DNA from: Bacteroidia bacterium
Lineage (GTDB): Bacteria; Bacteroidota; Bacteroidia; J057; JANRLA01
Direction of reading: 5' to 3'
Assembly (NCBI GenBank): GCA_033763015.1
Contig: JANRLA010000031.1
Span: 1-60,955 of the forward strand
DNA length: 60,955 bases
The position numbers and the translations under genes are program-made. Below the pieces are notes generated by a model that saw only the letters and a list, made by a program, of their open reading frames with translations, was not told the DNA's origin and did not search any database. This document shows positions 9,272 through 60,612 of the stretch, in pieces (positions within the stretch are counted from its first letter, which is position 1; the number at the start of each line of letters is the position of its first letter).

Positions 9272-9361
9272 CGCGGTAGCCACCAGAGTTTGGGCCCCCT
9301 GTGGCCTAGAAGGGGTTGCCGGTTGGCGGTAACGGGCCTGAGGCGTTTCTTTGCCCGACCG

Positions 9362-10189
9362 ATGGCAACCCCTATCCAATCGTGGCTCCCACACAGTGGG
9401 GGCTCGGCCCAGACGCCGTTTTTCCTGTTGGCCGGGCCCTGTGCCATCGAAGACGCTACAACTCCGTTCGAGGTCGCGCAGACGGTTAAGGCCTGGTGTG
9501 CAGCGCTGGGGATCCCCTACGTGTTCAAAGGCTCGTACCGCAAGGCCAACCGTACGAGTAGCAGCAGCTTTACGGGCATTGGCGACGCTGCGGCGCTCGA
9601 AATCCTGGCCCGGGTGCGGCAGGAGGTGGGGGTACCCGTGGTAACCGACATCCACGAGACCCACGAGGCCAAGTTGGCCGCCGAATTCGTAGACGTGCTC
9701 CAGATACCTGCGTTTCTGTGCCGCCAGACCGAACTCCTGCACGCCGCGGGCGAGACCGGCAAGGTGGTCAACATCAAAAAAGGGCAGTTTGCGGGCCCTG
9801 AGGTGATGCGCTTTGCGGCTGAAAAAGTGGCCGAAACCGGCAACCACCAGGTGCTGCTCACCGAGCGTGGCACCACGTTTGGCTACACCGACCTGGTGGT
9901 CGACTACCGCAACTTTGCCTGGATGCAGCAATACGGCTTTCCAGTCGTGTTCGATGGTACCCATAGCCTCCAGCAGCCCAACAGCGCCAGTGGTGTGACA
10001 GGGGGGCGGCCCCAGCTGATCGAAACCCTGGCCAGGGCAGCCGCCGCCGTTGGTGTTGACGGGTTCTTTTTAGAAGTACACCCCGAGCCCAGCCGGGCAA
10101 AATCGGATGCGGCCAACATGCTGCGGCTCGATCTGCTTGAGGGCCTACTTACCCGTTTGGTGCGCATTGCCCAAGCCGCACGTGCATGA
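9362..10189 (+). CDS. kdsA: 3-deoxy-8-phosphooctulonate synthase
   Basis: FFLLAGPCAIE, GIPYVFKGSYRKANRTS and VVFDGTHSLQQP motifs. Start trimmed to the ATG at 9362. Confidence 0.9.
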   Translation: MATPIQSWLPHSGGSAQTPFFLLAGPCAIEDATTPFEVAQTVKAWCAALGIPYVFKGSYRKANRTSSSSFTGIGDAAALEILARVRQEVGVPVVTDIHETHEAKLAAEFVDVLQIPAFLCRQTELLHAAGETGKVVNIKKGQFAGPEVMRFAAEKVAETGNHQVLLTERGTTFGYTDLVVDYRNFAWMQQYGFPVVFDGTHSLQQPNSASGVTGGRPQLIETLARAAAAVGVDGFFLEVHPEPSRAKSDAANMLRLDLLEGLLTRLVRIAQAARA

Positions 10190-11136: not shown

Positions 11137-11567
11137 GCTTTGTTGTAGTGGTGCAGCAGGTAGTCGATAGCCAGTACGTAGCCGGCTACGCCAAAGCCTG
11201 AAATGACCCCGGCCACGACAGGCGAAATGACCGACTGGTGGCGCCAGGTTTCGGCGCGGCCAAACACGTTCGAGATGTGAACCTCGACCACGGGTTTGGG
11301 TAGGGCGCGGATGCAATCGGCGAGGGCATAGCTGGTATGGGCCAGTGCGCCGGGGTTGATCACGACCGAGTCGAAGCCGTCGGTCTCCTGCAGTTTATCG
11401 ATAAGGGCCCCTTCGTGGTTGCTTTGGTAGTGCTTGAGGGTAAGGTCGAGGAAGCGGCGCTGCAGGTTGGCAATGACGGTGGGTAGCGTTTCCTTGCCGT
11501 AGATTTCGGGTTCGCGGGTGCCCAAGAGGTTCAGGTTGGGGCCGTTCAGGATCAGGATTGTCTGCAT
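11133..11567 (-). CDS. aroQ: type II 3-dehydroquinate dehydratase
   Basis: MQTILILNGPNLNLLGTREPEIYG N-terminus plus the HISNV motif. Start trimmed to the ATG at 11567. Confidence 0.92.
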   Translation of the reverse strand: MQTILILNGPNLNLLGTREPEIYGKETLPTVIANLQRRFLDLTLKHYQSNHEGALIDKLQETDGFDSVVINPGALAHTSYALADCIRALPKPVVEVHISNVFGRAETWRHQSVISPVVAGVISGFGVAGYVLAIDYLLHHYNKA

Positions 11568-11593
11568 CGGGTAGGGGTTACGACAAGCGGCGA

Positions 11594-12523
11594 ATGAAGG
11601 GGGTGAAAAACCGACCGGAAGATAGGGACTGGGCCTTGGCCATAGACGCATTCTTGGCGCATTTGCGCATCGAGCGCGGCCTGAGCCCCCACACCCTAGA
11701 AAGCTATGGCCACGACCTGGCCGCCCTGGCGGGCTGGCTGGCCCAAACCACCCCCGTCCGCCTGGCCGAGCTGGCCCCGGTGCACATCCAACACTACCTG
11801 GAGCAGCTGGTAGACCAGCGGCAGCTCTCCGAGTTCAGCCAGGCGCGGGCCCTGAGCGCGCTGCGCACTTTCTTTCGGTACCTGGAGGCCGAGGGCCGGG
11901 TGCCAGTCAGCCCCCTGGCCCAGATCCGCAGCCCCAAGCTGCAGCGCAAGTTGCCCCGGGTGCTGAGCGTGGCCGATATAGATGCCCTGTTTGCGGGTAT
12001 AGATATGAGTACCGACGCTGGCACCCGTAACCGGGCCCTGCTCGAGCTACTCTACAGCAGCGGCCTGCGCGTGACCGAAGCGCTGACCCTGCCCATGCAC
12101 CACCTGTACCCCGACGAGGGCTTTGTGCGTGTGGTGGGCAAGGGCAACAAAGAGCGCATCGTGCCGGTAGGCGGCAGCGCCCTGCGCTACCTGGCGCTCT
12201 ACCGCACCGCCGTGCGTGTGCACCAGCAGCCCCAGAAGGGCGCGGCGGGCCTATTGTTCCTCAACCAGCGCGGGGGGCAGCTTAGCCGACAGCAGGTGTT
12301 TCTGGTGGTGCAGCAACTGGCGGCGCAGGCGGGCCTGGCCCCGCCGGTGAGCCCGCACACGCTGCGGCACTCGTTTGCCACGCACCTGATAGAAGGCGGC
12401 GCCGACCTACGGGCCGTGCAAGACATGCTGGGCCACGAGAGCATCCTAACGACCGAAATCTACCTGCACCTCGACCGCCAGTACCTGCGCGAAATCCACG
12501 CCCAGTACCACCCGCGGGGGTGA
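11594..12523 (+). CDS. xerD: site-specific tyrosine recombinase XerD
   Basis: SAM-like N-terminal domain (AIDAFLAHLRIERGLSPHTLESY). Catalytic motifs LYSSGLRVTE, HTLRHSFATHL and LGHESILTTEIYLH. Confidence 0.85.
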   Translation: MKGVKNRPEDRDWALAIDAFLAHLRIERGLSPHTLESYGHDLAALAGWLAQTTPVRLAELAPVHIQHYLEQLVDQRQLSEFSQARALSALRTFFRYLEAEGRVPVSPLAQIRSPKLQRKLPRVLSVADIDALFAGIDMSTDAGTRNRALLELLYSSGLRVTEALTLPMHHLYPDEGFVRVVGKGNKERIVPVGGSALRYLALYRTAVRVHQQPQKGAAGLLFLNQRGGQLSRQQVFLVVQQLAAQAGLAPPVSPHTLRHSFATHLIEGGADLRAVQDMLGHESILTTEIYLHLDRQYLREIHAQYHPRG

Positions 12524-26671: not shown

Positions 26672-27517
26672 ATGTTTACCTCGCCGCAGGAGTTAGACCT
26701 CGAACTTGATCGGGATGAGCTCGATCGGTTCATCCACGAAGTACGCGCCAAGTACAGCTACGACTTTGCCAACTACGCCCAGTCGTCGTTCAAGCGGCGG
26801 GTAGCCATGGTGCTCAAAAAGCACGGCATCAAGAGCCTGAATTACCTGACCGACCGGGTGCTGGCCGATGCCGTTTTTTTTGACCAGGTACTCCTCGACA
26901 TCACGGTCAATACGACCGAGATGTTCCGTGACCCGACCTTCTGGAAGTACCTACGCCTATATGTATTGCCTGAGCTGGCCAAGCGGCCCGAGCTCGCCAT
27001 CTGGCATGCCGCCTGCTCCAGTGGCGAGGAGGTGCTTTCCATGGCCATTCTACTCAAAGAAGAGGGCCTCTTCGACCGGGCACGGGTCTACGCCACCGAC
27101 ATCAACCATAAGGTACTTAAGCGTGCGGCCGACGGGCGTTACGCTGCGCGCAACCTTGAGCTGTTCCGCACCAATTACCTGGCCACGGGCGCCAAGACCC
27201 AACTGGAGGCGTACTACCAGTTGCAGGGGGGCGACCCGGTGTTTGACCGCGGGCTGCTCGAGCGGGTAAACTTTCGGCCCCACGACCTGGCGTTAGATGG
27301 GTCGTTTGGCAAGTTCGACCTCGTTTTTTGCCGGAACGTGATGATCTATTTCAACCAGACGCTGCAAAACCGGGTATTTGAACTGCTGCACGACAGCCTG
27401 TTTCTGGGCGGCTTTTTGGCCCTGGGCGCCAAAGAGAGCCTGATCTGGTGCCGTATCGCCGATAAGTTTCAGACCGTAAGCGACCACGAAAAGATCTACC
27501 GCAAGCTGCGGGCCTAG
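26672..27517 (+). CDS. CheR-type protein-glutamate O-methyltransferase
   Basis: CheR N-terminal helical domain, TEMFRDP, and SAM-binding IWHAACSSGEEVLSMAI and FCRNVMIYF. Confidence 0.88.
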   Translation: MFTSPQELDLELDRDELDRFIHEVRAKYSYDFANYAQSSFKRRVAMVLKKHGIKSLNYLTDRVLADAVFFDQVLLDITVNTTEMFRDPTFWKYLRLYVLPELAKRPELAIWHAACSSGEEVLSMAILLKEEGLFDRARVYATDINHKVLKRAADGRYAARNLELFRTNYLATGAKTQLEAYYQLQGGDPVFDRGLLERVNFRPHDLALDGSFGKFDLVFCRNVMIYFNQTLQNRVFELLHDSLFLGGFLALGAKESLIWCRIADKFQTVSDHEKIYRKLRA

Positions 27518-27523
27518 TACGCC

Positions 27524-28156
27524 ATGATTGTCATTGGCAGCCCCAGCGGCAGCAGCAAACCCAATGTGCTGGGCGACCTGACCGAAGCCCGGGCCCGTGT
27601 GCAGGTGGTGCTCATCGGCGGTTCGGCGGGCAGCTTCAGCGTTACCCACCGGTTGTTGGAGCAGTTGCCGGCCGATTACCGCCTGCCCGTTGTGGTGGTC
27701 TTGCACCGGCTGAAAGACAAACGGGAGGGCTTTAAAGAGGCCCTGCAGATCCGCACCCGTGTAGTGGTGGAAGAGCCCGACGACAAGACCCTTGTCGAAC
27801 CCGGCAAGGCGTACATCGCACCGGCGAACTACCACCTGCTCTTCGAAACCCCCCAGCAACTGGCACTGGCGACGACCGAGTTGGTGCAGTTCTCGCGGCC
27901 CTCGATCGATGTGCTCTTCGAGTCGGCCGCCGATGTGCTGGGGCCCCGTGTGCTGGCCATTTTGCTCTCGGGGGCCAACCGCGATGGGGCAGCGGGCATG
28001 TACCGCATTGGCCGACGGGGTGGTTTTTTGGCGGTGCAGGACCCCGCCGATGCTGCCATGCCCACCATGCCGCAAGCGGCGCTGCAGCTTAGTAAGCCCA
28101 CCTGGACGCTCCCCGAATACCAATTGGCCGAGCTGCTGTGCGGATTGCAGGCCTGA
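27524..28156 (+). CDS. CheB-type protein-glutamate methylesterase, catalytic domain only (no receiver)
   Basis: VVLIGGSAGSF, VVVLHRL, AYIAPANYHL, SRPSIDVLFESAA and LSGANRDGAAG. At 210 aa there is no room for a REC domain. Confidence 0.85.
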   Translation: MIVIGSPSGSSKPNVLGDLTEARARVQVVLIGGSAGSFSVTHRLLEQLPADYRLPVVVVLHRLKDKREGFKEALQIRTRVVVEEPDDKTLVEPGKAYIAPANYHLLFETPQQLALATTELVQFSRPSIDVLFESAADVLGPRVLAILLSGANRDGAAGMYRIGRRGGFLAVQDPADAAMPTMPQAALQLSKPTWTLPEYQLAELLCGLQA

Positions 28157-28305
28157 GCCGTGCTACTTTTTGTGCCCAAACATTCGTTTCAGGTGCCTTT
28201 TTTCACATTTTTAGGGGCCCGCGATTTCATCTGCCGTGGCTATGTGGATAACACGTGGGCGAAACAAAGTCATTTTACAGGCCAGAGGAACGGGGTTGTT
28301 TTTTG

Positions 28306-28313
28306 TATATTCG
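28306..28313 (+). promoter_or_regulatory. candidate -7 box TATATTCG upstream of the SiaB/SiaC-like cassette
   Basis: Lies 65 nt upstream of the ATG at 28379 in a 222-bp T-rich spacer after cheB. Confidence 0.35.
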
Positions 28314-28378
28314 TCGCAACTTCGCCTCTCCCAACGATTTAGCCCTCGGCTTGTAACGCCGTATCGCTCCCCGAGCTC

Positions 28379-28969
28379 ATGAACGACACGCCGGCAGTGC
28401 CACATACGTCCGACGAAAGACAGCTGTCTTTTACGTACCCTACGTTTAAGGACATGCAGGACAACAATGTGATATTTGTTTACAAAGGCATTGTCAATTC
28501 TGACCTCGTGACGCATGTCCTGGAGATGATGTCCGAAAAAATGGAAGAGGACAAACAGGATCGCAGGTTATCGAAAAAGGTGTTTAACGTGATGGTAGAA
28601 TGCCTTACCGGCGCCTACACCGACGAAGCGCTGGAGGGCAAAGAAGGCTACGACCCCACCACGGTGCTGCTCGTTAAGCGCGACGACACCGCCTATGTAG
28701 TGGCCACCGGGTACTACATCCACAACCCCAAGGTGCAGACCATCAAGCACATGCTCGACCGCATCAACGGCATGAGCATCGAGGAGATGAAAGAGTTTTA
28801 CCAGGAAGTTATCAGCCGCGAAGACCCCGGGGCTACTGGCTTCACTGATCTGGCGATTATAGACCTGGCGCGGAAAAGCAAACACAAGCTTCAATACCAG
28901 TTCAAGTACATCTCGCCAGAGTTTACGTTCTTCAGCCTCGAATCGAGGATATCACAGCAAAGTCTCTAA
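28379..28969 (+). CDS. SiaB-like (DUF6272-type) putative protein kinase, copy 1
   Basis: NNVIFVYKGIVNSDLVTHVLEMM and KKVFNVMVECL resemble the SiaB/anti-sigma-kinase-like family that partners with DUF1987 proteins. It is a paralogue of 29443..29991. Confidence 0.65.
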   Translation: MNDTPAVPHTSDERQLSFTYPTFKDMQDNNVIFVYKGIVNSDLVTHVLEMMSEKMEEDKQDRRLSKKVFNVMVECLTGAYTDEALEGKEGYDPTTVLLVKRDDTAYVVATGYYIHNPKVQTIKHMLDRINGMSIEEMKEFYQEVISREDPGATGFTDLAIIDLARKSKHKLQYQFKYISPEFTFFSLESRISQQSL

Positions 28970-28993
28970 TTTTACGCCAAACACCCACGGGTT

Positions 28994-29377
28994 ATGCTAG
29001 AGCCGCTCAAAATTGAACCCACCCACAAGACCCCTAAGGTCTACCTGGATCCCGCCGAAAATCATTTCGAGCTCAGTGGGCGTTCCATCCCCGAAGATTC
29101 GGTTGGTTTCTACCAGCGAATCCTCGGTTGGATCGATGAGTATGCCCAGAGCCCAAACGCTAAGACAGACTTCAAGTTTGAGCTGGAGTACTTCAACACG
29201 AGCTCCTCGAAGAACATCCTCGAGCTGCTCAAGAAGCTCGAGAGCATTCACAACGACGGCCACCCGGTCAATATCACCTGGTACTACGATGAGGATGACG
29301 AGGACATGGAGGAAACGGGACAGGACTACAAGGCCCTGCTCAACGTACCCATTGAGCTAATTGTGAAAGTATACTAG
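28994..29377 (+). CDS. SiaC-like (DUF1987) regulatory phosphoprotein, copy 1
   Basis: PKVYLDPAENHFELSGRSIPED, EYFNTSSSK and ITWYYDEDDEDMEETG are hallmark DUF1987 motifs. Confidence 0.8.
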   Translation: MLEPLKIEPTHKTPKVYLDPAENHFELSGRSIPEDSVGFYQRILGWIDEYAQSPNAKTDFKFELEYFNTSSSKNILELLKKLESIHNDGHPVNITWYYDEDDEDMEETGQDYKALLNVPIELIVKVY

Positions 29378-29442
29378 GTACTACCTACCAGTCCGGCCCA
29401 AACTACCAAGCTAAACTACCCAGCTAACTACATCGTCCTGCC

Positions 29443-29991
29443 ATGACGTACAGCTATTACAAGAACATGCAGCTGAACAACATCATTTTCGTCTACCAGG
29501 GCGAAGTGACAGCTGACTTGGTCTCCTCCATACTGCACATGATGGAAAACAAGCTGGATGGCGACGGTGAGGACAAAAAAATCAAGAAGAAGGTCTTCAA
29601 CGTGATGGTAGAGTGCCTCCAAAACGTCTACCACCACCTGGATACCCTGCCCGTAGGCCAAGTAGAAACCGACATCAACGACCGCACCGCGCTACTGATG
29701 ATCGGCAAAGAAGAGAAAGACTACTACGTGATTACCGGCAACCACATTGAGAACGACCGGATCAACGACCTGAAACGCAAGCTGGAGCGGGTAAACCAGG
29801 CCGACAAGCAGGAGCTCAAGGCGCTGTACCAGGAAATCCTTTCCAACGAATCGTTTTCTGAGAAAGGCACTGCAGGTTTGGGCATGATCGACATTGCCCG
29901 CAAGAGCGGCCAGAAACTTGGGTACGACTTCCACCCCGTGAACGAAAAATATTCGTTCTTTAGCCTCGAAGCCAAGGTATCCCGCGTGTAA
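29443..29991 (+). CDS. SiaB-like (DUF6272-type) putative protein kinase, copy 2
   Basis: NNIIFVYQGEVTADLVSSILHMMENKL, KKVFNVMVECLQNVYHH and GLGMIDIARKSGQKL. Confidence 0.7.
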   Translation: MTYSYYKNMQLNNIIFVYQGEVTADLVSSILHMMENKLDGDGEDKKIKKKVFNVMVECLQNVYHHLDTLPVGQVETDINDRTALLMIGKEEKDYYVITGNHIENDRINDLKRKLERVNQADKQELKALYQEILSNESFSEKGTAGLGMIDIARKSGQKLGYDFHPVNEKYSFFSLEAKVSRV

Positions 29992-30047
29992 TTTCAACGA
30001 GTCAAAAACCCGGTTCTACCTCCACCAGCGCGCAATACTTACCCCGG

Positions 30048-30422
30048 ATGAGAAACCTGATTATTGAGCCCACGGCCAAGACCCCTAAAGTGATCCTGAA
30101 TGCGGATATCAACGTGTTCGAGATCACCGGGCGCTCCATTCCCGAGGACTCCATTGGTTTTTACCGCAAGATCCTGGACTGGGTCGACGAGTACGGACAA
30201 AGCCCCAACCCGCGTACCAACTTCAAGTTTGAGCTGGAATACTTCAACACCAGTTCGTCTAAGTGCCTGCTGGACCTGTTCCGTAAGCTTGAAAAGCTCT
30301 ACAAAAGCGGCCATGACGTAGAAATTACGTGGTGCTACGACGCCGACGATGAGGATATGGAGGAAACCGGCGAGGACTACAAAGCCCTGCTCGACGCCCC
30401 CTTCAACCTGGTTTCGGTGTAA
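30048..30422 (+). CDS. SiaC-like (DUF1987) regulatory phosphoprotein, copy 2
   Basis: PKVILNADINVFEITGRSIPED, EYFNTSSSK and ITWCYDADDEDMEETG. By eye it is roughly 60 percent identical to copy 1. Confidence 0.8.
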   Translation: MRNLIIEPTAKTPKVILNADINVFEITGRSIPEDSIGFYRKILDWVDEYGQSPNPRTNFKFELEYFNTSSSKCLLDLFRKLEKLYKSGHDVEITWCYDADDEDMEETGEDYKALLDAPFNLVSV

Positions 30423-30443
30423 GCCTGGTACAGATTTTGTAGC

Positions 30444-30472
30444 AAAAACGCGTAGTCACCCTACGCGTTTTT
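30444..30472. terminator. rho-independent (bidirectional) terminator ending the SiaB/SiaC cassette
   Basis: AAAAA-CGCGTAG-TCACC-CTACGCG-TTTTT. Confidence 0.6.
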
Positions 30473-30493
30473 GCGTAAGTGATGGCTGTGGAA

Positions 30494-30501
30494 TACTTTT
30501 G
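30494..30501 (+). promoter_or_regulatory. -7 box TACTTTTG
   Basis: Perfect TAnnTTTG, 70 nt upstream of the ATG at 30572. Confidence 0.4.
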
Positions 30502-30571
30502 CGGAACGCAAGGCATCCCACACCTGTATACTTGCACTAATTACTTTACCACCTAGCTCAGGTCACACCCG

Positions 30572-31021
30572 ATGGAACTCAAGTCCAAGAAAAAAGCCGA
30601 CGCTTTTGCAGTTGAAATCGAGTTCTTGACTGAAGCGCGCGCGCGCCTCGATACGCTTTCTTCGGCCGATGAACTCCGTAGCGCGTATGCTACGGTACTC
30701 GAAGAGTACGAGAAACTGCTCGAAGAGAGCAAGTTTTTGACCAAAGTGTCAGACAAGCTCGAGTCGAAGCTGAACTCGGCCAACGAGCAGCTCAAAAAAT
30801 ACAACCAAGAGCTGCAGTCTGAAACCGAAGTTGCGCGCACCCAGAAAGATAAAGTACTCGAGAAGAACAAGCAGCTCTACCAGGAGAAGTCTGAGCTTGA
30901 CTACCGGATGAACCGGTTCCAGCTTACGCTCATTATTCTTATCGCCGTTCTGGTGGTGATTATCTTGATCATGCTGTACTACTTCTACTTCAAGGACAAG
31001 CTGATGCCTGCCAGCCGGTAA
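30572..31021 (+). CDS. tail-anchored coiled-coil protein
   Basis: About 110 aa of heptad-like Glu/Lys/Leu-rich sequence, then a single C-terminal TM helix LTLIILIAVLVVIILIMLYYFYF. It has its own promoter and terminator. Confidence 0.65.
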   Translation: MELKSKKKADAFAVEIEFLTEARARLDTLSSADELRSAYATVLEEYEKLLEESKFLTKVSDKLESKLNSANEQLKKYNQELQSETEVARTQKDKVLEKNKQLYQEKSELDYRMNRFQLTLIILIAVLVVIILIMLYYFYFKDKLMPASR

Positions 31022-31030
31022 CCAACACAG

Positions 31031-31056
31031 GGCCCTCGGCAGCGAGGGCCTTTTTT
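31031..31056 (+). terminator. rho-independent terminator
   Basis: GGCCCTCG-GCAG-CGAGGGCC followed by TTTTTT. Confidence 0.65.
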
Positions 31057-31098
31057 GTTTGTGCCGGGCACAGCTCTAGCAACTGAACTTCCTAAACC

Positions 31099-31106
31099 TA
31101 TATTCG
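31099..31106 (+). promoter_or_regulatory. candidate -7 box TATATTCG
   Basis: TATATTCGCG lies 27 nt upstream of the ATG at 31134. Confidence 0.35.
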
Positions 31107-31133
31107 CGGCCACTTACAAACTGGCCTCTACAC

Positions 31134-31355
31134 ATGTATTGGACTCTTGAGCTGGCTTCTCACCTGGAGGACGCCCCCTGGCCTGCCACCCGCGACGAGC
31201 TAATTGACTATGCACTGCGTACCGGCGCACCGTTAGAGGTGGTCGAAAACCTGCAGGAACTCGTCGAAGACGATACCCCCTACGAGAGCATCGAGGAGAT
31301 CTGGCCCGACTACCCTACCAAAGAGGACTTCCTCTTCAACGAAGACGAGTATTAG
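31134..31355 (+). CDS. DUF2795 domain protein
   Basis: The 73-aa acidic protein contains WPATRDELIDYALRTGAPLEVVENLQEL, typical of DUF2795. Confidence 0.7.
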   Translation: MYWTLELASHLEDAPWPATRDELIDYALRTGAPLEVVENLQELVEDDTPYESIEEIWPDYPTKEDFLFNEDEY

Positions 31356-33727: not shown

Positions 33728-33800
33728 GCCTCCTTAGCTCAGTTGGTAGAGCTACTGATTTGTAATCAGTAGGTCGCTGGTTCGAGTCCGGCAGGGGGCT
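33728..33800 (+). tRNA. tRNA-Thr (anticodon TGT)
   Basis: GCCTCCTTAGCTCAGTTGGTAGAGCTACTGATTTGTAATCAGTAGGTCGCTGGTTCGAGTCCGGCAGGGGGCT folds as a cloverleaf. Confidence 0.9.
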
Positions 33801-33932
33801 CAAGAAACGGGCAACGGCCCACTTAGCCTCGGCGCGCCGGGGTACGTTCTTTCACAGTCAGCAGCCAGGGGTACGGCCAGTCGTTGTAGGCTACCCAGTG
33901 GGCAACGTGGGTCAACCCGCGCAGACAAGTAG

Positions 33933-34015
33933 GGGAAGGTGCCGGAGCGGTCAAACGGAGCAGACTGTAAATCTGCCGGCGTCAGCCTACGGGGGTTCGA
34001 ATCCCTCCCTTCCCA
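33933..34015 (+). tRNA. tRNA-Tyr (anticodon GTA)
   Basis: Type II tRNA with a long variable arm. Anticodon loop CTGTAAA and T-arm GGGGGTTCGAATCCCTC. Confidence 0.88.
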
Positions 34016-34070
34016 CTCATACCGCGTTGGTTCACCTAGGGTACAGACGCTCGCCCTAGGGTTTACACCC

Positions 34071-34143
34071 GCGGGAGTAGCTCAGTTGGTAGAGCTTCTG
34101 CCTTCCAAGCAGAATGTCGCGAGTTCGAGTCTCGTCTCCCGCT
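34071..34143 (+). tRNA. tRNA-Gly (anticodon TCC)
   Basis: GCGGGAGTAGCTCAGTTGGTAGAGCTTCTGCCTTCCAAGCAGAATGTCGCGAGTTCGAGTCTCGTCTCCCGCT folds as a cloverleaf. Confidence 0.9.
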
Positions 34144-34253
34144 CGTTCGGTCCTAGCCCACTTCAGCCTATCCAATGGTAGGGCTGTAACCCTGGCGGCT
34201 TTTCCAAGTCGGTGCTGTGCCCCGTTGCGGGTCATTCGCACGCCTTGCAATAA

Positions 34254-34328
<75 letters not shown>

Positions 34329-34438
34329 GAAGTATGTGCTGGCCGCCTACCGGTTGTTCGGGAAGCGTTCAGCCGACCTGTACAAGCCACATTATCCGTT
34401 ACCATCACCCGTACTAAACCCTACCCCTTCACAGCAAC

Positions 34439-35626
<1,188 letters not shown>

Positions 35627-35694
35627 GACACGCGCGTAACCGAACGTAACCGGAGCGCTGGGGTGCTACATGGCCCCCAAGGCTCCGGTTACTT

Positions 35695-35770
<76 letters not shown>

Positions 35771-35822
35771 AATATGCCTGCCTGATGGGTAGGAATTGTA
35801 GTAGACAAACGAAACACACCCC

Positions 35823-36017
35823 ATGAACCGACTGCGCACCTGGCTGAACCTGTACCGCGAAGAGCTGGTGAACAAAGTGCAGTGGCCCAAAGCCGAATCG
35901 TTGCAAGGTGACACCATTACGGTGTTGGTCGCCTCGCTGATTCTAGCGTTGGTCATTGCCTTGCTCGACTTTGCCTTCAGCAACGGCATGGGCCTGGTGT
36001 ACGGTTTGTTCGAATAA
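35823..36017 (+). CDS. secE: preprotein translocase subunit SecE
   Basis: 64 aa, single TM helix, ELVNKVQWP motif, and the conserved position between tRNA-Trp and nusG. Confidence 0.88.
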   Translation: MNRLRTWLNLYREELVNKVQWPKAESLQGDTITVLVASLILALVIALLDFAFSNGMGLVYGLFE

Positions 36018-36055
36018 TGGGGATTGAGGGTAGAGAGGTAAACACACGCGAAGCG

Positions 36056-36616
36056 ATGGCCGAAGAAGCGAAGGATGTTCAGTGGTATGTGGTTCGGGCA
36101 ATTGCTGGGCAAGAGAACAAGGCCAAGCAATACCTCGAGTCCGAGATCGCGCGCCTGAAGCTCGAGAACATCATCCAGCGTGTGGTGATACCGACCGAGA
36201 AGGTCTTCGAGATCCGCAACGGTAAGAAGCGTACCCGCGAGCGCAGCTATCTGCCTGGCTACATGCTGTTGCAGGCCTACCTAGAGCCCGAGGTCATCCA
36301 GGTTATCCGCGATGTACCTGGCATTATTGGTTTCCCGGGCCACAGCAAAGACAGCAACATCCCGCCCCAGCCGCTGCGCGAAAGCGAGGTAAACAAGATA
36401 CTGGGCAAAGTAGAAGAGCTCCAGACGGCCGATGAGACGATGGAAAACCCCTATCGCGTGGGCGAAGCTATCAAGGTGATGGACGGACCCTTCAGCGGCT
36501 TTACCGGTTCGGTAGAGGAGGTGGACGAAATGAAGAAAAAATTGAAGGTCTCGGTCAAAATTTTTGGCCGGGTAACTCCGTTAGAACTCAACTTTTTACA
36601 AGTCGAGCGCGTATAA
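36056..36616 (+). CDS. nusG: transcription termination/antitermination factor NusG
   Basis: WYVVRAIAGQENK NGN domain and a C-terminal KOW (GEAIKVMDGPFSGFTGSV). Start trimmed to the ATG at 36056. Confidence 0.93.
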   Translation: MAEEAKDVQWYVVRAIAGQENKAKQYLESEIARLKLENIIQRVVIPTEKVFEIRNGKKRTRERSYLPGYMLLQAYLEPEVIQVIRDVPGIIGFPGHSKDSNIPPQPLRESEVNKILGKVEELQTADETMENPYRVGEAIKVMDGPFSGFTGSVEEVDEMKKKLKVSVKIFGRVTPLELNFLQVERV

Positions 36617-36706
36617 CCCTGTCTAGCTTCCACTAGTTATATAGGTTGCTTTGTGAGAGCGACCGCCAACCAGTCCCTAACTACTTCGAATTGAACCGTT
36701 TACCGA

Positions 36707-37162
36707 ATGGCCAAGCAGATTGAAACCTTTGTGAAGCTGCAGGTGAAGGGTGGCCAAGCCAACCCTGCACCCCCTATCGGTCCGGCATTGGGTTCGAAGG
36801 GCGTGAACATCATGAAGTTCTGCAAGCAGTTCAACGCCCGAACCCAGGACAAGATGGGGCAGGTTCTGCCCGTGGTCTTGACGGTCTACTCCGACAAAAG
36901 CTTTGAGTTTGTCATCAAAACACCGCCCGCGGCCATCCTGCTGAAGGATGCCTCGAAGGTGCAAACCGGCTCGGCCGAACCCAACCGTAAAAAGGTTGGC
37001 ACGGTCACCTGGGACCAAGTCAAAGCGATCGCAGAAACGAAACTGCCCGATATGAACTGCTTCACGGTAGAAAGCGCCATGAAAATGGTAGCCGGTACCG
37101 CACGCAGCATGGGCATTACCGTAGAAGGCACGCCTCCCTGGGGGGAGGTGTCGGACAACTAA
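36707..37162 (+). CDS. rplK: 50S ribosomal protein L11
   Basis: [34 protein letters not shown]. Confidence 0.97.
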
Positions 37163-37177
37163 CCGACCGTTACCACA

Positions 37178-37876
37178 ATGGCAAAACGTAGCAAAAAATA
37201 CACCACCGCAGCAGCGCTGTTGGCCTCGAAAGGGCCCCAAAAGCTCGCCGACGCCTGCTCGCTCGTGAAACAAGTATCGTACACCAAGTTCGACGGCTCG
37301 GTTGACCTGGCCGTTAAACTGGGGGTAGACCCCCGCCAAGCCAACCAAATGGTACGGGGCGTTGCCTCGCTACCCCACGGCACAGGCAAGGAAGTGCGTG
37401 TACTGGTACTGACAGGACCCGATAACGAAGCCGCGGCGAAGGACGCCGGGGCCGATCTGGTGGGCCTCGATGAGTTTATCTCGAAAATCGAAGGCGGCTG
37501 GACCGACGTGGACGTCATCATCTGTACCCCAGATGTGATGCCCAAAGTAGGCCGGCTCGGTCGGGTACTCGGCCCCCGTGGCCTGATGCCCAACCCCAAG
37601 AGCGGCACCGTGACCACCGACGTAGGCAAAACCGTACGTGAGGTAAAGGCCGGTAAGATCGACTTCAAAGTTGACCGTACCGGGATCGTTCACGCGGCTA
37701 TCGGCAAAACGTCGTTCAGCGCCCAGCAGTTGGCCGACAACGCCAACGAGCTGCTGCAGGTCATCCAACGCCTCAAGCCGCAAGGCCTGAAAGACACGTA
37801 CGTCAAATCTGTCTTCCTCTCGGCCACCATGAGCCCGAGTGTAGAAGTCGACAAAGCAACGCTCGCAGGTTTCTAA
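37178..37876 (+). CDS. rplA: 50S ribosomal protein L1
   Basis: Conserved L1 sequence and operon position. Confidence 0.97.
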
Positions 37877-37899
37877 CCCACCTAAACGTACCTCTTACC

Positions 37900-38433
37900 A
37901 TGACCAAAGAAGAGAAAAACGCATTGGTGGACGAGTTGGCCGCGGTACTCGAACACACCCCGAATTTCTACGTCCTCGACATGGGCGGCATGGATTCGGC
38001 CCAGACGAGCGCCTTCCGGCGCAAGCTCTACGAGAACCGCCTCTCGGTACGGATGGTGAAGAACACGCTGATGGAAAAGGCCCTCGCCAAACGCGGGGTC
38101 GATACCGAAAGCCTGAAGGGTGCCCTCAAGCAACCTTCGTCGTTCATCTTCGTAGGCGAGAACGCCAACCAGCCTGCCAAACTGCTCAAAGACCACCTGA
38201 AAGGTGGTGCCGAACTGCCCAAGCTCAAGGGTGCCTTCATCGAACACAGTGCGTTCGTGGGCGAAGACCAGCTCGATACGCTGGCCAGCCTGAAGAGCAA
38301 GCAAGAGCTGCTGGGCGAACTCATCGGCCGTCTGCAAAGCCCCATGAGCAATCTCGTGGGCGCTCTACAGTCGGGCGGTGGTACCCTCCACGGCCTACTC
38401 AAAGCCCTCGAGGCCCGCGAGAAAGCCGCGTAA
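37900..38433 (+). CDS. rplJ: 50S ribosomal protein L10
   Basis: Operon position and L10-like sequence. Confidence 0.95.
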
Positions 38434-38485
38434 GTACACTTTCTATTTCCCTGAACCCCACACCCCTGTAATTCATCTTACAACC

Positions 38486-38875
38486 ATGGCAGATCTGAAA
38501 ACACTGGCCGACCAACTGGTTAACCTCACGGTAAAAGAGGTGAACGAGCTGGCCCAAATCCTGGAGAACGACTACGGTATTAAGCCTGCCGCTGCGGCCG
38601 CCCCCATCATGGTAGCGGCTGCCGGTGGTGCCGATGCCGGCGCTGGCCCAGCTGTAGAGGCACAAACCGAGTTCGATGTCATCCTCAAGTCGGCCGGCGC
38701 CAAAAAGCTGGAAGTCGTGAAGGTGGTTAAGAACATCACCGGTCTGGGCCTGGCCGAAGCCAAAGGCCTGGTGGACAACGCCCCCAGCCCCATCAAGGAA
38801 AAAGCCTCGAAAGAAGACGCCGAGTCGATCAAGAAGCAGCTGGAAGACGCCGGCGCCGAAGTCGAACTCAAGTAA
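38486..38875 (+). CDS. rplL: 50S ribosomal protein L7/L12
   Basis: [23 protein letters not shown], an Ala-rich hinge, and C-terminal [12 protein letters not shown]. Start trimmed to the ATG at 38486. Confidence 0.97.
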
Positions 38876-38943
38876 GTCTTCGTTCGTTGAGAGCACCTCA
38901 TACCCGGCCGTTGGCATACTGCCTGCGGCACCGCTAGGGATAC

Positions 38944-38969
38944 AGACAGGGCACACCCGTGCCCTGTCT
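38944..38969 (+). terminator. rplL-rpoB intergenic hairpin (candidate attenuator)
   Basis: AGACAGGGCA-CACCCG-TGCCCTGTCT, a 10-bp perfect stem with a weak T-tract. Its position is analogous to the known rplL-rpoB attenuator of E. coli. Confidence 0.4.
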
Positions 38970-39057
38970 ATGCCCGTTTATAGACAAACTACAAACGCCT
39001 CTCCCGGCACTGCTATCTCTCCTGCGGCAACGCTCCACCGGTAAACGGATACGCCCC

Positions 39058-42861
<3,804 letters not shown>

Positions 42862-42916
42862 CTTTTTCTCACCCGACGGGGGGCTGCTTGCGGCCCCCCA
42901 CAGGCATCTCTACCCG

Positions 42917-47230
<4,314 letters not shown>

Positions 47231-50316: not shown

Positions 50317-52086
50317 ATGCCCAAATCCGTCATTCTGTGCGTTGACGACGAGCTTTCTGTGCTCACCAGTCTGCGCCAGGAGCTAGAGGCCGGGCTGGGG
50401 CATGACTTCCTGATCGAATGCGCCGAAAGCGCCGAGGAGGCCCTCGAAGCCTACGACGAACTCGTTGCGCAGGGCCAACAGGTGCAGGTCGTGCTGTCTG
50501 ACCAGATTATGCCGGGCATGAAGGGCGACCAGCTACTGGTCAAGCTCTACGAGCGCGATGCCAACCTGAAGACCATACTCCTCACCGGCCAGGCAACCGC
50601 CGATTCGGTTGGCAATGCCATCAACCGCGCCAACCTCTTCCGGTACATCGGCAAGCCCTGGAACGAGCGCGACCTGCGCATGACGGTGCAGGAAGCTGCC
50701 CGCACCTACCGCGAGCAAAGTGCCCTCGACCGCCAGGTGGCTATCCTCGATAGCCTCAACCGCGGCACCCAGTACCTGGCCGATACCCTGAACCCCGAGG
50801 TGCTCGCCGAACGGCTGCTCACCTCGGCGCTGCTCGATACCCACACCAACATCGGGGTGCTTTGGCTGCGCCAGCCCGATGGGCAACACCGCTTCTACAC
50901 CAACGAAAGCGACGGCGACCCCGATACCGTAGACCCGGTGCACGAAATCAGGCCCGCAGATGCTGCCACCCAGTTCCCGGTCGGGTGGATGGACGAAGTC
51001 TTTGGCGACGGGCAGCCCCGGCTGCTCGCCGATGCTGCCTACGAAGGCCCGCTCGTAACCGACAAGCGCGTGGCCACTCGGAAGATTCGCTCCATCTGTG
51101 CAGTACCCATAGCCGTAAGCGGCGAAGCGCCCCTGGGTGTGCTTTACCTCGAAGAACAGGCCAAGGCCCACCACTTTCGCCCCGATACCCTGGAGTTCTT
51201 GAGCCTTTTTACCGGGTATGCCGCGGTGTGCTTCCAGAACACCTGGCTCTACCACAACCTCGAGGCCACGGTGCAAAGCCGCACCGAGCTGCTGCAGGAG
51301 CGCAACCAGAGCATGCGCCGAAGTATCGCGTTTGCCCACCGGATCCAGACCAGCGTGCTGCCCCCGCTCGAGGAGTTGCTCCGCCACTTCCCCAAGGCGT
51401 TCGTGTACTACCAGCCCAAAGACGTCGTCTCCGGCGACTTCTACTGGATGGGGCACCACCAGGGCTACTTCTATGTCGCCGCCGTCGATTGCACCGGCCA
51501 CGGTGTGCCGGGTGCGCTTGTCTCGGTGCTGGGCAGCAACCTCTTTACCCAGGCGGTGTACGAACAGAACCTGAAAACCCCTGGCGAGGTCCTGAACTGG
51601 GTGAACCGGCACGTACGGCAAACCTTCAAGCAGTACGGCGAGAACGCCGAGGTGCAAGACGGCATGGACCTGGCCATGGTGGCCATCGCCGACGACCGCT
51701 CGCACCTGTACTTTGGCGGGGCCAAGCGCCCCCTGTGGCACCTTAGGGATGGCGAACTGCGCGAGACCAAGGGCGACCGCTTCCCGATCGGGGGCTCAAA
51801 CTACGACCTGGGGGCCGACGACGAGGTCTTTACCACCCAGCACCTGCAGCTCCAGCCCGGCGACCGGCTCTTCTTGTTTACCGATGGCCTGACCGACCAG
51901 TTTGGGGGCGACGATGGGGGCAAAAAGTTCTCTACCCGGGCCTTCCGCGAGCTGCTCTTGGGGGCCCAAGACCTACCCCTGCCCCAGCAGCGCGATGTCA
52001 TCCGCCGCGGGATGGCCGCCTGGCAGGGTGAGCAACCCCAAACCGACGATCGCTGCCTGATTGGGCTCGAAATTCCGGCCCACTAG
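50317..52086 (+). CDS. response regulator fused to GAF and PP2C/SpoIIE phosphatase domains (RsbU/SiaA-like)
   Basis: REC (CVDDE, LSDQIMPGM, GKPW), a central GAF-like region, and PP2C motifs SGDFYW, VDCTGHGVPGA, DGMD, FTDGLTDQ and QTDD. Confidence 0.85.
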   Translation: MPKSVILCVDDELSVLTSLRQELEAGLGHDFLIECAESAEEALEAYDELVAQGQQVQVVLSDQIMPGMKGDQLLVKLYERDANLKTILLTGQATADSVGNAINRANLFRYIGKPWNERDLRMTVQEAARTYREQSALDRQVAILDSLNRGTQYLADTLNPEVLAERLLTSALLDTHTNIGVLWLRQPDGQHRFYTNESDGDPDTVDPVHEIRPADAATQFPVGWMDEVFGDGQPRLLADAAYEGPLVTDKRVATRKIRSICAVPIAVSGEAPLGVLYLEEQAKAHHFRPDTLEFLSLFTGYAAVCFQNTWLYHNLEATVQSRTELLQERNQSMRRSIAFAHRIQTSVLPPLEELLRHFPKAFVYYQPKDVVSGDFYWMGHHQGYFYVAAVDCTGHGVPGALVSVLGSNLFTQAVYEQNLKTPGEVLNWVNRHVRQTFKQYGENAEVQDGMDLAMVAIADDRSHLYFGGAKRPLWHLRDGELRETKGDRFPIGGSNYDLGADDEVFTTQHLQLQPGDRLFLFTDGLTDQFGGDDGGKKFSTRAFRELLLGAQDLPLPQQRDVIRRGMAAWQGEQPQTDDRCLIGLEIPAH

Positions 52087-52115
52087 CTGCGCAACCATTG
52101 CAACCCAAGGTGCGT

Positions 52116-52123
52116 TACTTTTG
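52116..52123 (+). promoter_or_regulatory. -7 box TACTTTTG upstream of lemA
   Basis: Perfect TAnnTTTG, 45 nt upstream of the ATG at 52169. Confidence 0.4.
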
Positions 52124-52168
52124 TGACCAAATGGGTAGGCGTAGTGCTGCCCAGACATTCAAACACAC

Positions 52169-52768
52169 ATGAAAAACCGTGGTTTCTTAATCGCCCTGGC
52201 TGCTGTTGCTGCCATTGGGCTACTCATCTACAGTTCTACCGTTGGCCGGTACAACCGCCTGGTGCGCATGCAGGAGGCCATTAACCAGCAGTGGAGCCAG
52301 GTAAAGAACCAGTACCAGCGCCGGTCAGACCTCATCCCCAACGTTATCTCGACGGTGAAAGGCGCCGCCAACTTTGAGCAGGAGACCCTGCAGAACATCG
52401 TCGATGCCCGGGCCCGCGTTGGCCAGATCGTTATTTCTGACGACGTGGTGTCTGACCCCGAAAAGCTAGCCGAGTTCGAGCGGGCACAGGCGCGCCTGAG
52501 CCAGGGCATCGGGCGGCTCATTGCGGTGTCTGAAAACTACCCCGATCTGAAAAGCAGCCAGCTCTTTCGCGACCTGGTCGTCCAACTCGAGGGTACCGAA
52601 AACCGCATTTCGGTGGAGCGCAAGCGGTTCATTGAGTCGATCGGCGCGTACAACACCTACCTCCGGCAGTTCCCCACCAACCTCATTGGGGGTATGATGG
52701 GCTTCGAGAAAATGACGTACTACGAAGGCGATGAAGGCAACGAAACGGCGCCAAAGGTGACGTTCTAG
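52169..52768 (+). CDS. lemA: LemA family protein
   Basis: N-terminal TM helix, YNRLVRMQEAINQQWSQVKNQYQRRSDLIPN, and ENYPDLKS. Confidence 0.88.
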   Translation: MKNRGFLIALAAVAAIGLLIYSSTVGRYNRLVRMQEAINQQWSQVKNQYQRRSDLIPNVISTVKGAANFEQETLQNIVDARARVGQIVISDDVVSDPEKLAEFERAQARLSQGIGRLIAVSENYPDLKSSQLFRDLVVQLEGTENRISVERKRFIESIGAYNTYLRQFPTNLIGGMMGFEKMTYYEGDEGNETAPKVTF

Positions 52769-52816
52769 CTAAAGTCTACCCACGTACAGCCAGCCACACC
52801 CACCACCCCCGCCCGT

Positions 52817-53257
52817 ATGTCGAAGAGTGCCAGCCAACTGTTCCAGGCCGAAGAGCGCCAACTCATCGTAGAGGCGATCCAACGCGCCGAGGGCCACACC
52901 ACGGGCGAGGTACGGGTCTTTATCGAAGACCGGTGCTCAGGCGATGTGCTGGAACGTGCCAAACGGCTCTTTTTTGAGCTCGATATGCATAAGACCGCCA
53001 ACAGCAACGGTACCCTGGTGTACCTGGCGGTGAAAGACCACAAGTTTGCGGTGCTGGGCGACCGCGGCATCGACAACGTGGTGCCCCCGGGGTTTTGGGA
53101 TACCACCCGCGACGTGATGCGCGACCAATTCAGCCAAGGCAACTTCCTTACTGGGCTTGTGGTAGCCATCGATAGTATTGGCCTGAAGCTGCAGGAGTTC
53201 TTCCCCAAAACCGACGACGATGTCAACGAGCTGCCCGATGAGGTTATCATCCGGTAA
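52817..53257 (+). CDS. TPM-domain protein (cytoplasmic type)
   Basis: AIQRAEGHTTGEVRVFI and NGTLVYLAVKDHKFAVLGDRGI are typical of TPM/DUF477, and the gene follows lemA. Confidence 0.78.
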   Translation: MSKSASQLFQAEERQLIVEAIQRAEGHTTGEVRVFIEDRCSGDVLERAKRLFFELDMHKTANSNGTLVYLAVKDHKFAVLGDRGIDNVVPPGFWDTTRDVMRDQFSQGNFLTGLVVAIDSIGLKLQEFFPKTDDDVNELPDEVIIR

Positions 53258-60528: not shown

Positions 60529-60612
60529 AGGGAGTAGCAAAGCTGAGGACGGAAGTTAACCCGCACGGCGGAAGGAAGACGGCATACCGAACGGAATACC
60601 GATAGTACACGA

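Follow-up and report, generated by a model that had tools for sequence, protein, structure and literature searches.

The stretch of Bacteroidia DNA analysed here (contig JANRLA010000031.1; the window, meaning the whole 60,955 nucleotides, nt) carries seven consecutive genes in the order cheR-cheB-siaB1-siaC1-siaB2-siaC2-cc, which encode a CheR-like methyltransferase, a CheB-like methylesterase, two SiaB-family proteins, two SiaC-family (DUF1987) phosphoproteins and a coiled-coil protein, cc149 (Table 1). With a probability of about 0.55, we read these genes as a conserved signalling cluster that represents a Bacteroidota variant of the SiaABC partner switch, one whose output is not a diguanylate cyclase. 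To our knowledge, the only characterised SiaB/SiaC system is that of Pseudomonas, which ends in a diguanylate cyclase, and cyclic di-GMP signalling is largely absent from Bacteroidota. The original prediction for this DNA had described siaB1 to siaC2 as a tandem duplication of a SiaB-like kinase and a SiaC-like phosphoprotein: two kinase/substrate pairs with no phosphatase or output enzyme, likened to the Pseudomonas partner switch. Here, we show that the duplication is part of a larger syntenic unit, that one of the two SiaB proteins is probably a pseudokinase and that cc149 is a strong candidate for the docking partner of SiaC.

A duplicated siaB-siaC module within a conserved gene cluster

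Both SiaB proteins exceed the cut-offs of Pfam DUF6272 (PF19788; 88.7 bits for SiaB1 and 148.6 for SiaB2, cut-off 26.6) and of NCBIfam SiaB_fam_kinase (NF038262; 115.5 and 171.7 bits, cut-off 85). Likewise, SiaC1 and SiaC2 match Pfam SiaC (PF09345, DUF1987) with 144.6 and 147 bits (cut-off 24.5) over profile positions 1-118 and 1-119 of 120. Since all four proteins score well below the cut-offs of the equivalog models, namely NF038264 (biofilm regulation kinase SiaB; 49.9 and 86.7 against 225 bits) and NF038265 (biofilm regulation phosphoprotein SiaC; 86.5 and 88.8 against 150 bits), they are family members and not orthologues of the Pseudomonas proteins (SiaB = PA0171). Among PDB sequences, SiaB2 matches P. 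aeruginosa SiaB (6KKO_A, E 6e-17); a SiaB profile search of the same sequences retrieved 6KKO alone, with no sequence-level similarity to SpoIIAB or HATPase_c. The alignment of SiaC2 with P. aeruginosa SiaC (6KKO_C, E 3.7e-13) is ungapped and sets N67-T68-S69 of the former against N67-T68-S69 of the latter, whose T68 is the experimentally mapped phospho-site (PMC7647112). SiaC1 carries the same N-T-S block offset by one residue, so that the acceptor Thr is kept in both copies, and the block is invariant in 31/31 SiaC relatives. The AlphaFold2 (AF2) models of SiaB2 and SiaB1 (predicted local distance difference test, pLDDT, 80.8 and 81.3) both find 6KKO_A as the top Foldseek match (TMq 0.78 and 0.75, respectively), followed by SpoIIAB, UsfX, RsbW, histidine-kinase CA domains and PDK, all of them GHKL-type folds. 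Because profile, PDB and fold matches agree, the original observation and its family assignments stand, as does the partner-switch analogy, which these folds and the conserved acceptor Thr of NTSS in both SiaC copies support.

The tandem paralogy of the two gene pairs was likewise borne out. The open reading frames (ORFs) were confirmed, and the proteins are 41% (SiaB1 and SiaB2, E 9e-50) and 66% (SiaC1 and SiaC2, E 6e-62) identical. Each of the shared blocks quoted earlier was found, namely GRSIPEDS.GFY, FKFELEYFNTSSSK and DEDMEETG.DYKALL in SiaC and NN.IFVY.G and KKVFNVMVECL in SiaB, and the DNA stretches 29171-29199 and 30222-30250, described as near-identical, differ at 1/29 bases. This 29-nt likeness reflects the family-invariant peptide FKFELEYFNT and not a recent duplication or gene conversion; both of the latter were rejected in view of the whole-gene nucleotide identities (70% for siaC, 62% for siaB), a longest exact shared word of 19 nt and the separate clades of the C1 and C2 copies.

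A one-genome-per-species collection was scanned for SiaC of the EYFNTSSSK type. SiaB/SiaC-type pairs proved to be widespread, with at least 599 genome stretches matched, of which 80 loci (L numbers below) were retrieved and mapped by ORFs and hidden Markov models (HMMs). A single siaB-siaC pair is present in about 75 of these 80 loci, from Bacteroidales, Flavobacteriales, Cytophagales and Chitinophagales, and the double pair is confined, among them, to the clade nearest the window. The seven-gene order of the window recurs in L007, L176, L177 and L178, while L011-L015 read cheR-cheB-(PEBP)-[GAF-PAS-SpoIIE]-siaB1-siaC1-siaB2-siaC2-cc-cc-X; the order of the seven genes is kept in every related lineage with enough sequence. 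As the genes flanking the cluster vary between lineages, this argues that a shared function keeps the seven together. Neighbour-joining places the C1 and C2 orthologues in two sister clades of mirrored internal topology, which indicates a single duplication before the sampled lineages split; judging from these sequences, the duplication is old and predates the divergence of all sampled lineages that carry the double pair. The original prediction had named a ubiquitous, ancestral tandem pair with a known output encoded next to it in relatives as a finding that would tell against it, and this applies by half. The pair is indeed ancestral and fixed within its clade, with a candidate output adjacent, but that output is not a known one and a single pair is the rule outside the clade.

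Compared with a close strain, non-synonymous divergence (dN) is near 0 in all seven genes at a synonymous divergence (dS) of 0.09-0.26. Identity to distant orthologues is 90% for SiaB2, 91% for SiaC2, 81-83% for SiaC1, 56% for SiaB1 and 53-64% for cc. Two further observations concern the retrieved loci. In two Bacteroidales loci (L056, 9021-9896; L068, 4767-5645), siaC is preceded by an ORF of about 290 residues that scores as SiaC, not SiaB, perhaps a diverged or fused arrangement, perhaps an artefact of ORF calling. Behind the two cc genes of L011 lies a conserved ORF of 195 residues without a Pfam family (9330-9917, with equivalents in L012-L015), which has no counterpart in the window.

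SiaB1 as a probable pseudokinase

Motifs were compared among 73 single-copy Bacteroidota SiaB proteins, six SiaB2 proteins and Pseudomonas SiaB, using SiaB2 numbering. Essentially invariant in this set are E57-x-x-Q60-N61-x-x-H64-H65, T98-G99-N100, G142-x-x-G145-L146-G147 and D150-I-A-R-K. SiaB2 carries all of the invariant motifs (ECLQNVYHH, TGNH, GTAGLG), and pair 2 (SiaB2/SiaC2) is, as judged by its motifs, canonical, keeping every family-invariant feature. From SiaB1, however, Q60, H64/H65 and G145 are gone in all orthologues (six in the retrieved loci and about 57 database clusters), and the sub-lineage of the window has further lost N61 (ECLTGAYTDE), N100 (TGYY) and G147 (GFTDLA); E57, DLARK and the C-terminal strands are retained. 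We take the motifs to be the N, G1 and G2 boxes of GHKL kinases, and their positions in the models are compatible with a Bergerat fold: E..N lies on a long helix, and the G-rich motif lies at a helix N-terminus after a low-confidence lid. SiaB1 is therefore best described as probably a pseudokinase, in which the lost motifs would have served ATP binding.

The gene has nevertheless not been left to decay. Against the close strain, siaB1 shows dN = 0 at dS = 0.087, which indicates purifying selection, although its non-synonymous divergence across lineages is about five times that of siaB2 (dN 0.39-0.41 versus 0.08). Being full-length, well folded and under purifying selection, SiaB1 would thus be retained for a non-catalytic task, most simply the binding of a SiaC.

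The original prediction instead implied two fully active, parallel modules, in which each SiaB acts on its own SiaC with cross-talk or convergence on an output encoded elsewhere. It is in keeping with this that both SiaB proteins pass the NF038262 cut-off and keep the SiaB fold, that E57 and the DxARK block are present in both and the acceptor Thr in both SiaC copies, and that N61 is kept by most SiaB1 orthologues outside the window's sub-lineage. Nevertheless, we consider two active modules unlikely, since SiaB1 has lost Q60, H64, H65 and G145 (and, in the window, N61, N100 and G147) and shows the roughly fivefold non-synonymous divergence noted above, and since a conserved candidate output is encoded adjacent to the double pair. 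The claim of two kinase/substrate pairs accordingly needs correction for pair 1, whose SiaB is more likely a pseudokinase, devoid of nucleotide-binding-type motifs that are invariant in the 73 single-copy proteins, SiaB2 and Pseudomonas SiaB. Two points count against the pseudokinase assignment. The mapping to the N, G1 and G2 boxes is an inference, because no residue-level alignment to SpoIIAB was obtainable, and it is based on fold and pattern and not on a residue-level structural alignment. In addition, most SiaB1 orthologues still carry E57 and N61, because of which some residual kinase activity is possible.

cc149, a candidate docking partner of SiaC

The gene following siaC2 encodes a long coiled coil that ends in one transmembrane helix and matches no Pfam or NCBIfam family above cut-off. 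Clear homologues lie directly after siaC in L007, L009, L011-L016, L031, L032 and L087. A profile search collected 208 proteins, and an exhaustive HMMER search raised the family to 805 cluster representatives (E <= 1e-10 for 285); the members are without a Pfam family and uniformly annotated as 'hypothetical'. The gene adjoins siaC in five of five independent look-ups of distant members and in every retrieved locus that has it: siaC-cc in L094, siaB-siaC-cc in L095 and L180, siaB followed by a SiaC~cc fusion in L092, and, in L179, a HAMP-SpoIIE gene, siaB, siaC and cc, which is the siaABCD order with cc in the place of SiaD. The siaB-siaC-cc order is also present in cultivable relatives such as Marivirga or Flexithrix. 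In at least six clusters at 50% identity (P0176, P0365, P0373, P0375, P0377 and P0394), SiaC and cc are fused into one protein.

The stalk of P. aeruginosa SiaD is a parallel coiled coil that carries two repeated motifs, both bound by SiaC (PMC8457831). T68 of SiaC inserts between the stalk helices and bonds with S82 and Q86, while N67, S69 and Y65 contact D83 and Q86 of SiaD, I71 contacts V78 and E110 contacts R84 (PMC8457831). The SiaD sequence was read from a P. aeruginosa metagenome locus (L096), in numbering that agrees with PMC8457831, and its motifs there are LERIARISDGFQSM and LEKVARISDRYQQM. Within the cc family, conservation is highest in the block L-T-x-[VI]-S-D-[RK]-L-[QE]-x-K-L-N, which compares with I-S-D-R-Y-Q of the SiaD stalk; in SiaD numbering, 133 cc sequences conserve T79 in 132, S82 in 122, D83 in 130, R/K84 in 129, L85 in 130 and Q/E86 in 125. 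The family consensus is L..V-S-D-R-L-Q and cc149 reads L..V-S-D-K-L-E, while all of the SiaC~cc fusions read ISDRLQ, one residue away from the ISDRYQ of SiaD. When the cc profile was aligned to SiaD motif 2 with hhalign, 36 columns scored 26.3 (P 6e-4), compared with 10.6 +/- 2.1 (maximum 21.7) for 200 column shuffles and 10.3 for the reversed alignment. In a six-frame search of the window the docking pattern is unique to cc149. Furthermore, SiaC position 79 is Asp in Pseudomonas and Lys or Arg in Bacteroidota, and at stalk position 74 of the alignment SiaD has Arg and cc has Glu, Asp or Gln; if D79 pairs with R74, which is our reading of the contact list in PMC8457831, the charge would be swapped on both sides. 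The conserved block is thus likely a candidate SiaC-docking motif of the SiaD type.

The remainder of the protein offers a clue to the output. Four further proteins, P0407, P0414 (REC-PAS-PAS), P0417 and P0422 (TPR), carry the same C-terminal coiled-coil/membrane module as the long-type cc proteins but have no ISDRLQ. Such a loss in REC-PAS and TPR fusions is expected if SiaC is received by this block and the effector function resides in the C-terminal part, and it suggests that the C-terminal module is an undescribed membrane output domain. In long-type members, this module follows the pattern ..TIDELTKAK..R.A.TI....LF..SEG...LKPIE...

We therefore regard cc149 as a strong candidate, and a likely one, for a non-enzymatic membrane output or docking partner of SiaC. 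The view that the locus has neither phosphatase nor output enzyme holds in that no PP2C is encoded between 26672 and 31355 and no GGDEF protein was found, but it passed over this candidate output directly downstream. For GGDEF, the search covered the window with P. aeruginosa SiaD as a tblastn query (best E 2.6) and the large ORFs with Pfam scans, which gave none.

Several findings tell against this assignment. The hhalign probability is just 28%, and coiled-coil composition inflates scores of this kind; a HMMER search of PDB sequences with the cc profile gave generic coiled-coil noise only and did not retrieve SiaD. cc149 itself has Glu where SiaD has the T68-contacting Gln, and it does not have the second membrane segment of long-type family members. 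In the window, 150 nt and a hairpin lie between siaC2 and the gene for cc149. Finally, about 70 Bacteroidota species with siaB-siaC have no cc gene within 10 kb, and cc is therefore not a universal partner of SiaC.

Most Bacteroidota siaB-siaC pairs being without a nearby cc, the protein could be a mere conserved neighbour, for example a membrane scaffold, while the target of SiaC, or of SiaB as an anti-factor, would be a sigma factor or enzyme encoded elsewhere. Relatives of the SpoIIAB/RsbW-type fold do control sigma factors, and the hairpin before cc149 and the modest hhalign probability would fit as well. However, SiaC~cc fusions recur in six clusters and cc stood beside siaC in 5/5 look-ups, the top conserved cc block matches the experimentally defined SiaC-binding motif at both T68-contacting positions, and the REC-PAS or TPR fusions that replace the SiaC input drop exactly the ISDRLQ block. 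We accordingly hold a mere neighbour to be quite unlikely and retain cc149 as the candidate docking partner.

The proposed switch and the surroundings of the cluster

In the mechanism that we propose, SiaB2 would phosphorylate SiaC2, and probably also SiaC1, on the Thr of N-T-S-S, and a sensor PP2C would remove the phosphate. This phosphatase is encoded within the cluster in sister lineages and would be unlinked here, 50317-52086 being the sole candidate in view. Unphosphorylated SiaC would dock on the dimeric coiled coil of cc at V-S-D-K-L-E, as it does on SiaD at I-S-D-R-Y-Q, and phosphorylation would break this contact. SiaB1 may bind and sequester a SiaC paralogue without catalysis and so add a second, stoichiometric layer to the switch, while CheR and CheB might add reversible glutamate methylation to some component. 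Weighing against the scheme as a whole is that the functions of the cluster proteins are inferred in Bacteroidota.

Sensor PP2Cs are found directly upstream of siaB-siaC in several lineages, with the architectures GAF-PAS-SpoIIE, Reg_prop-YYY-SpoIIE and HAMP-SpoIIE, which argues that the PP2C/SiaB/SiaC triad is general; the gene lies inside the cluster in L011-L015, L020, L065 and L179. A Pfam scan of the window's cluster (26672-31355) found no PP2C gene, and the only candidate SiaA-type phosphatase of the window is a REC-GAF-SpoIIE protein encoded 20 kb away. Its PP2C domain is 37-42% identical to PP2Cs beside siaB-siaC elsewhere and 33% identical to that of P. aeruginosa SiaA. As a point against its assignment, its identity to the cluster-linked PP2Cs does not exceed that among the latter, for which reason it is a candidate only; sequence comparison did not show it to be orthologous with them. 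On the same strand behind this gene lie LemA (52169-52768) and two genes for TPM-domain proteins (52817-53257 and 53220-54044), and together these genes (50317-54044) possibly form a unit of their own for envelope or stress signalling.

Judged by gene order, the conserved unit includes cheR and cheB upstream of the double pair. The two directly precede it in 9/9 non-redundant lineages with enough upstream DNA and lie within 10 kb of 0/~75 single-pair loci, while the genes further upstream differ (an ABC ATPase, a peptidyl-tRNA hydrolase, a Ser/Thr kinase or a PAS protein). One of the latter, in L177 (3964-7095), is a protein of 1043 residues between the ABC ATPase gene and cheR, in which PAS domains alone and no output domain were recognised. 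It is possible, though somewhat less likely than not, that the two genes merely adjoin the SiaB/SiaC module, play no part in it and act on a substrate encoded elsewhere. A spacer of 222 nt separates cheB from siaB1, and no methyl-accepting chemotaxis protein (MCP; MCPsignal), CheA (Hpt/P-domain) or CheW was found in Pfam scans of the large ORFs of the window, nor was any canonical methylation motif seen in the cluster proteins, including, by eye, an MCP-type site in cc149; these absences equally speak against a methylation step in our scheme. Against mere neighbourhood stands the strict linkage to the double pair across lineages with differing upstream genes. Heptad-spaced EE pairs of the cc protein (LEEYEKLLEES) came up as CheR sites but remain speculation, because window-type relatives have DE/CDE there.

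A bolder form of our reading, which we put forward tentatively and think unlikely in its entirety, is that Bacteroidota rewired SiaABC onto a stalk-only membrane effector family not recognised before, made up of a SiaC-docking ISDRLQ helix and a coiled-coil/membrane module that in other proteins answers to REC-PAS or TPR inputs, and that duplication, a pseudokinase buffering a SiaC paralogue and the recruitment of CheR/CheB in one thermophilic clade then gave rise to a methylation-adapted partner switch. We know of no partner-switch system for which a combination with methylation-based adaptation has been described.

The closest known system is SiaABCD of P. aeruginosa (PA0172-PA0169; structures 6KKO, 6K4F and 7E6G; PMC7647112, PMC8457831, PMC7278518). 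As in the window, genes for a SiaB-fold GHKL-type kinase and a SiaC (DUF1987) protein stand side by side, the acceptor Thr lies in N-T-S-S and the gene after siaC bears the stalk motif ([VI]SD[RK]L[QE] compared with ISDRYQ); a PP2C stands beside the pair as in relatives of the window, the HAMP-SpoIIE of L179 resembling SiaA. Nevertheless, there are clear differences. In the window, the stalk motif is carried by a tail-anchored coiled coil of 149 residues without GGDEF, the kinase/substrate pair is present twice, one of the two kinases being degenerate, the cluster extends to cheR and cheB, and the operon encodes no phosphatase. In SpoIIAB/SpoIIAA and RsbW/RsbV of Bacillus, as in Sia, the antagonist is a small alpha/beta protein that receives a phosphate at a helix N-terminus from a GHKL Ser/Thr kinase, with a PP2C acting in opposition; however, SiaC is a DUF1987 protein and not a sequence-recognisable STAS protein, and no sigma factor target is evident here. 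HsbR-HsbA-HsbD of P. aeruginosa and BgrSTUWV-BgrR of Sinorhizobium meliloti are partner switches that control diguanylate cyclases (PMC8457831). In these, as proposed here, the unphosphorylated antagonist docks on an effector and no sigma factor is released, but they employ STAS proteins and GGDEF effectors, whereas the effector candidate here is without an enzymatic domain. Chemosensory CheR/CheB modules share with the cluster the adjacent genes for methyltransferase and methylesterase, and differ in that the cluster's CheB has no receiver domain, no MCP, CheA or CheW is nearby and the pair is linked to a partner switch. Full-text literature searches returned no paper on DUF6272 and, for DUF1987, only the Pseudomonas work.

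If cc is the docking partner, an unannotated family of 805 cluster representatives would gain a function, the SiaD stalk motif would be a portable SiaC receiver, and a tractable partner switch with a membrane protein as its output would be at hand. The degenerate SiaB1 would be a natural pseudokinase within a GHKL partner switch, and the invariable pairing of cheR/cheB with the duplicated module hints that glutamate methylation and Ser/Thr partner switching may be connected, a link so far unexplored.

Table 1. Positions, in window coordinates, of the cluster genes, their motifs and the associated elements
Feature	Position	Strand	Basis or remark
cheR-like protein-glutamate methyltransferase, 281 residues	26672..27517	+	Pfam CheR (PF01739) 135.8 bits, and CheR_N; opens the conserved cluster
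cheB-like methylesterase, 210 residues, esterase domain only	27524..28156	+	Pfam CheB_methylest (PF01339) 156.3 bits, residues 29-204
TATATTCG box, possible Bacteroidetes-type -7 element	28306..28313	+	read from sequence, in the 222-nt cheB-siaB1 spacer
siaB1, 196 residues, SiaB-fold, probable pseudokinase	28379..28969	+	NF038262 115.5 bits; motif comparison; AF2/Foldseek
siaB1 motif remnants	ECLTGAYTDE 28598-28627; TGYY 28706-28717; GFTDLA 28838-28855	+	
siaC1, 127 residues, SiaC-family phosphoprotein	28994..29377	+	PF09345 144.6 bits; in the orthologous C1 clade
siaC1 NTSSS and predicted acceptor Thr69 codon	29195-29209; 29198-29200	+	
siaB2, 182 residues, canonical SiaB-family kinase by its motifs	29443..29991	+	NF038262 171.7 bits; 6KKO_A match
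siaB2 motifs	ECLQNVYHH 29611-29637; TGNH 29734-29745; GTAGLG 29866-29883	+	
siaC2, 124 residues, SiaC-family phosphoprotein	30048..30422	+	PF09345 147 bits
siaC2 NTSSS and predicted acceptor Thr68 codon	30246-30260; 30249-30251	+	
14-bp perfect hairpin after siaC2, possible attenuating or bidirectional terminator	30442..30474	+	folding -24.3 kcal/mol, z -3.4
cc149, 149 residues, tail-anchored coiled coil, candidate SiaC docking partner/output	30572..31021	+	
cc149 docking-type block LTKVSDKLESKLN; core VSDKLE; transmembrane helix	30737-30775; 30746-30763; 30923-30991	+	
Intrinsic terminator after cc149	31029..31062	+	10-bp stem, 7 GC pairs, then TTTTGTTTGT
REC-GAF-SpoIIE (PP2C) phosphatase, 589 residues	50317..52086	+	Pfam SpoIIE, Response_reg, GAF

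The terminator-like hairpin that had been placed after siaC2, at 30444, was found as a perfect stem (Table 1); because its U-run forms part of the stem, it goes undetected in a scan for consensus terminators. The promoter-like box placed at 28306, TATATTCG, fared less well. It is one mismatch away from TAnnTTTG, which we take to be the Bacteroidetes -7 consensus, but a sigma-70 promoter scan gave nothing relevant and no match to the box, for which reason the box is unproven as a promoter, and the spacer around it is poorly conserved: TTTGTATATT is common to the cheB-siaB1 spacers of the window and L178, and the rest is not conserved. An Rfam scan of the window returned tRNAs only. Contigs of one metatranscriptome cross the cheR/cheB junction, and a 169-nt contig, 100% identical, crosses the siaB2/siaC2 junction; as short contigs of a single metatranscriptome, with possible DNA carry-over, they are weak evidence for transcription as units. 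G+C content falls to 0.518 over 28001-30000 (siaB/siaC) from about 0.60-0.67 in the flanks, with an AT skew of up to +0.14. Since the cluster is syntenic in relatives, this drop may stem from proteins rich in Lys, Glu, Asn and Asp rather than from recent transfer.

Beyond the strong terminator of cc149 follow genes for a DUF2795 protein and a copper ATPase, tRNAs and tuf. The standard block of tRNA-Thr/Tyr/Gly/Thr, tuf, tRNA-Trp, secE, nusG, rplKAJL and rpoBC lies directly downstream of the cluster at 33728-47230, and the synteny of the tuf-rpoBC block behind the cluster is also seen in L176 and L178. Hot-spring metagenome runs contain the window nearly whole. Elsewhere in it, a XerC/D-type tyrosine recombinase gene (11558-12523) adjoins tRNA-Leu/Gly genes, and a large serine recombinase (Resolvase domain, 534 residues; 58936-60540) is encoded at the window end beside a sigma-70 family gene (58058-58924).

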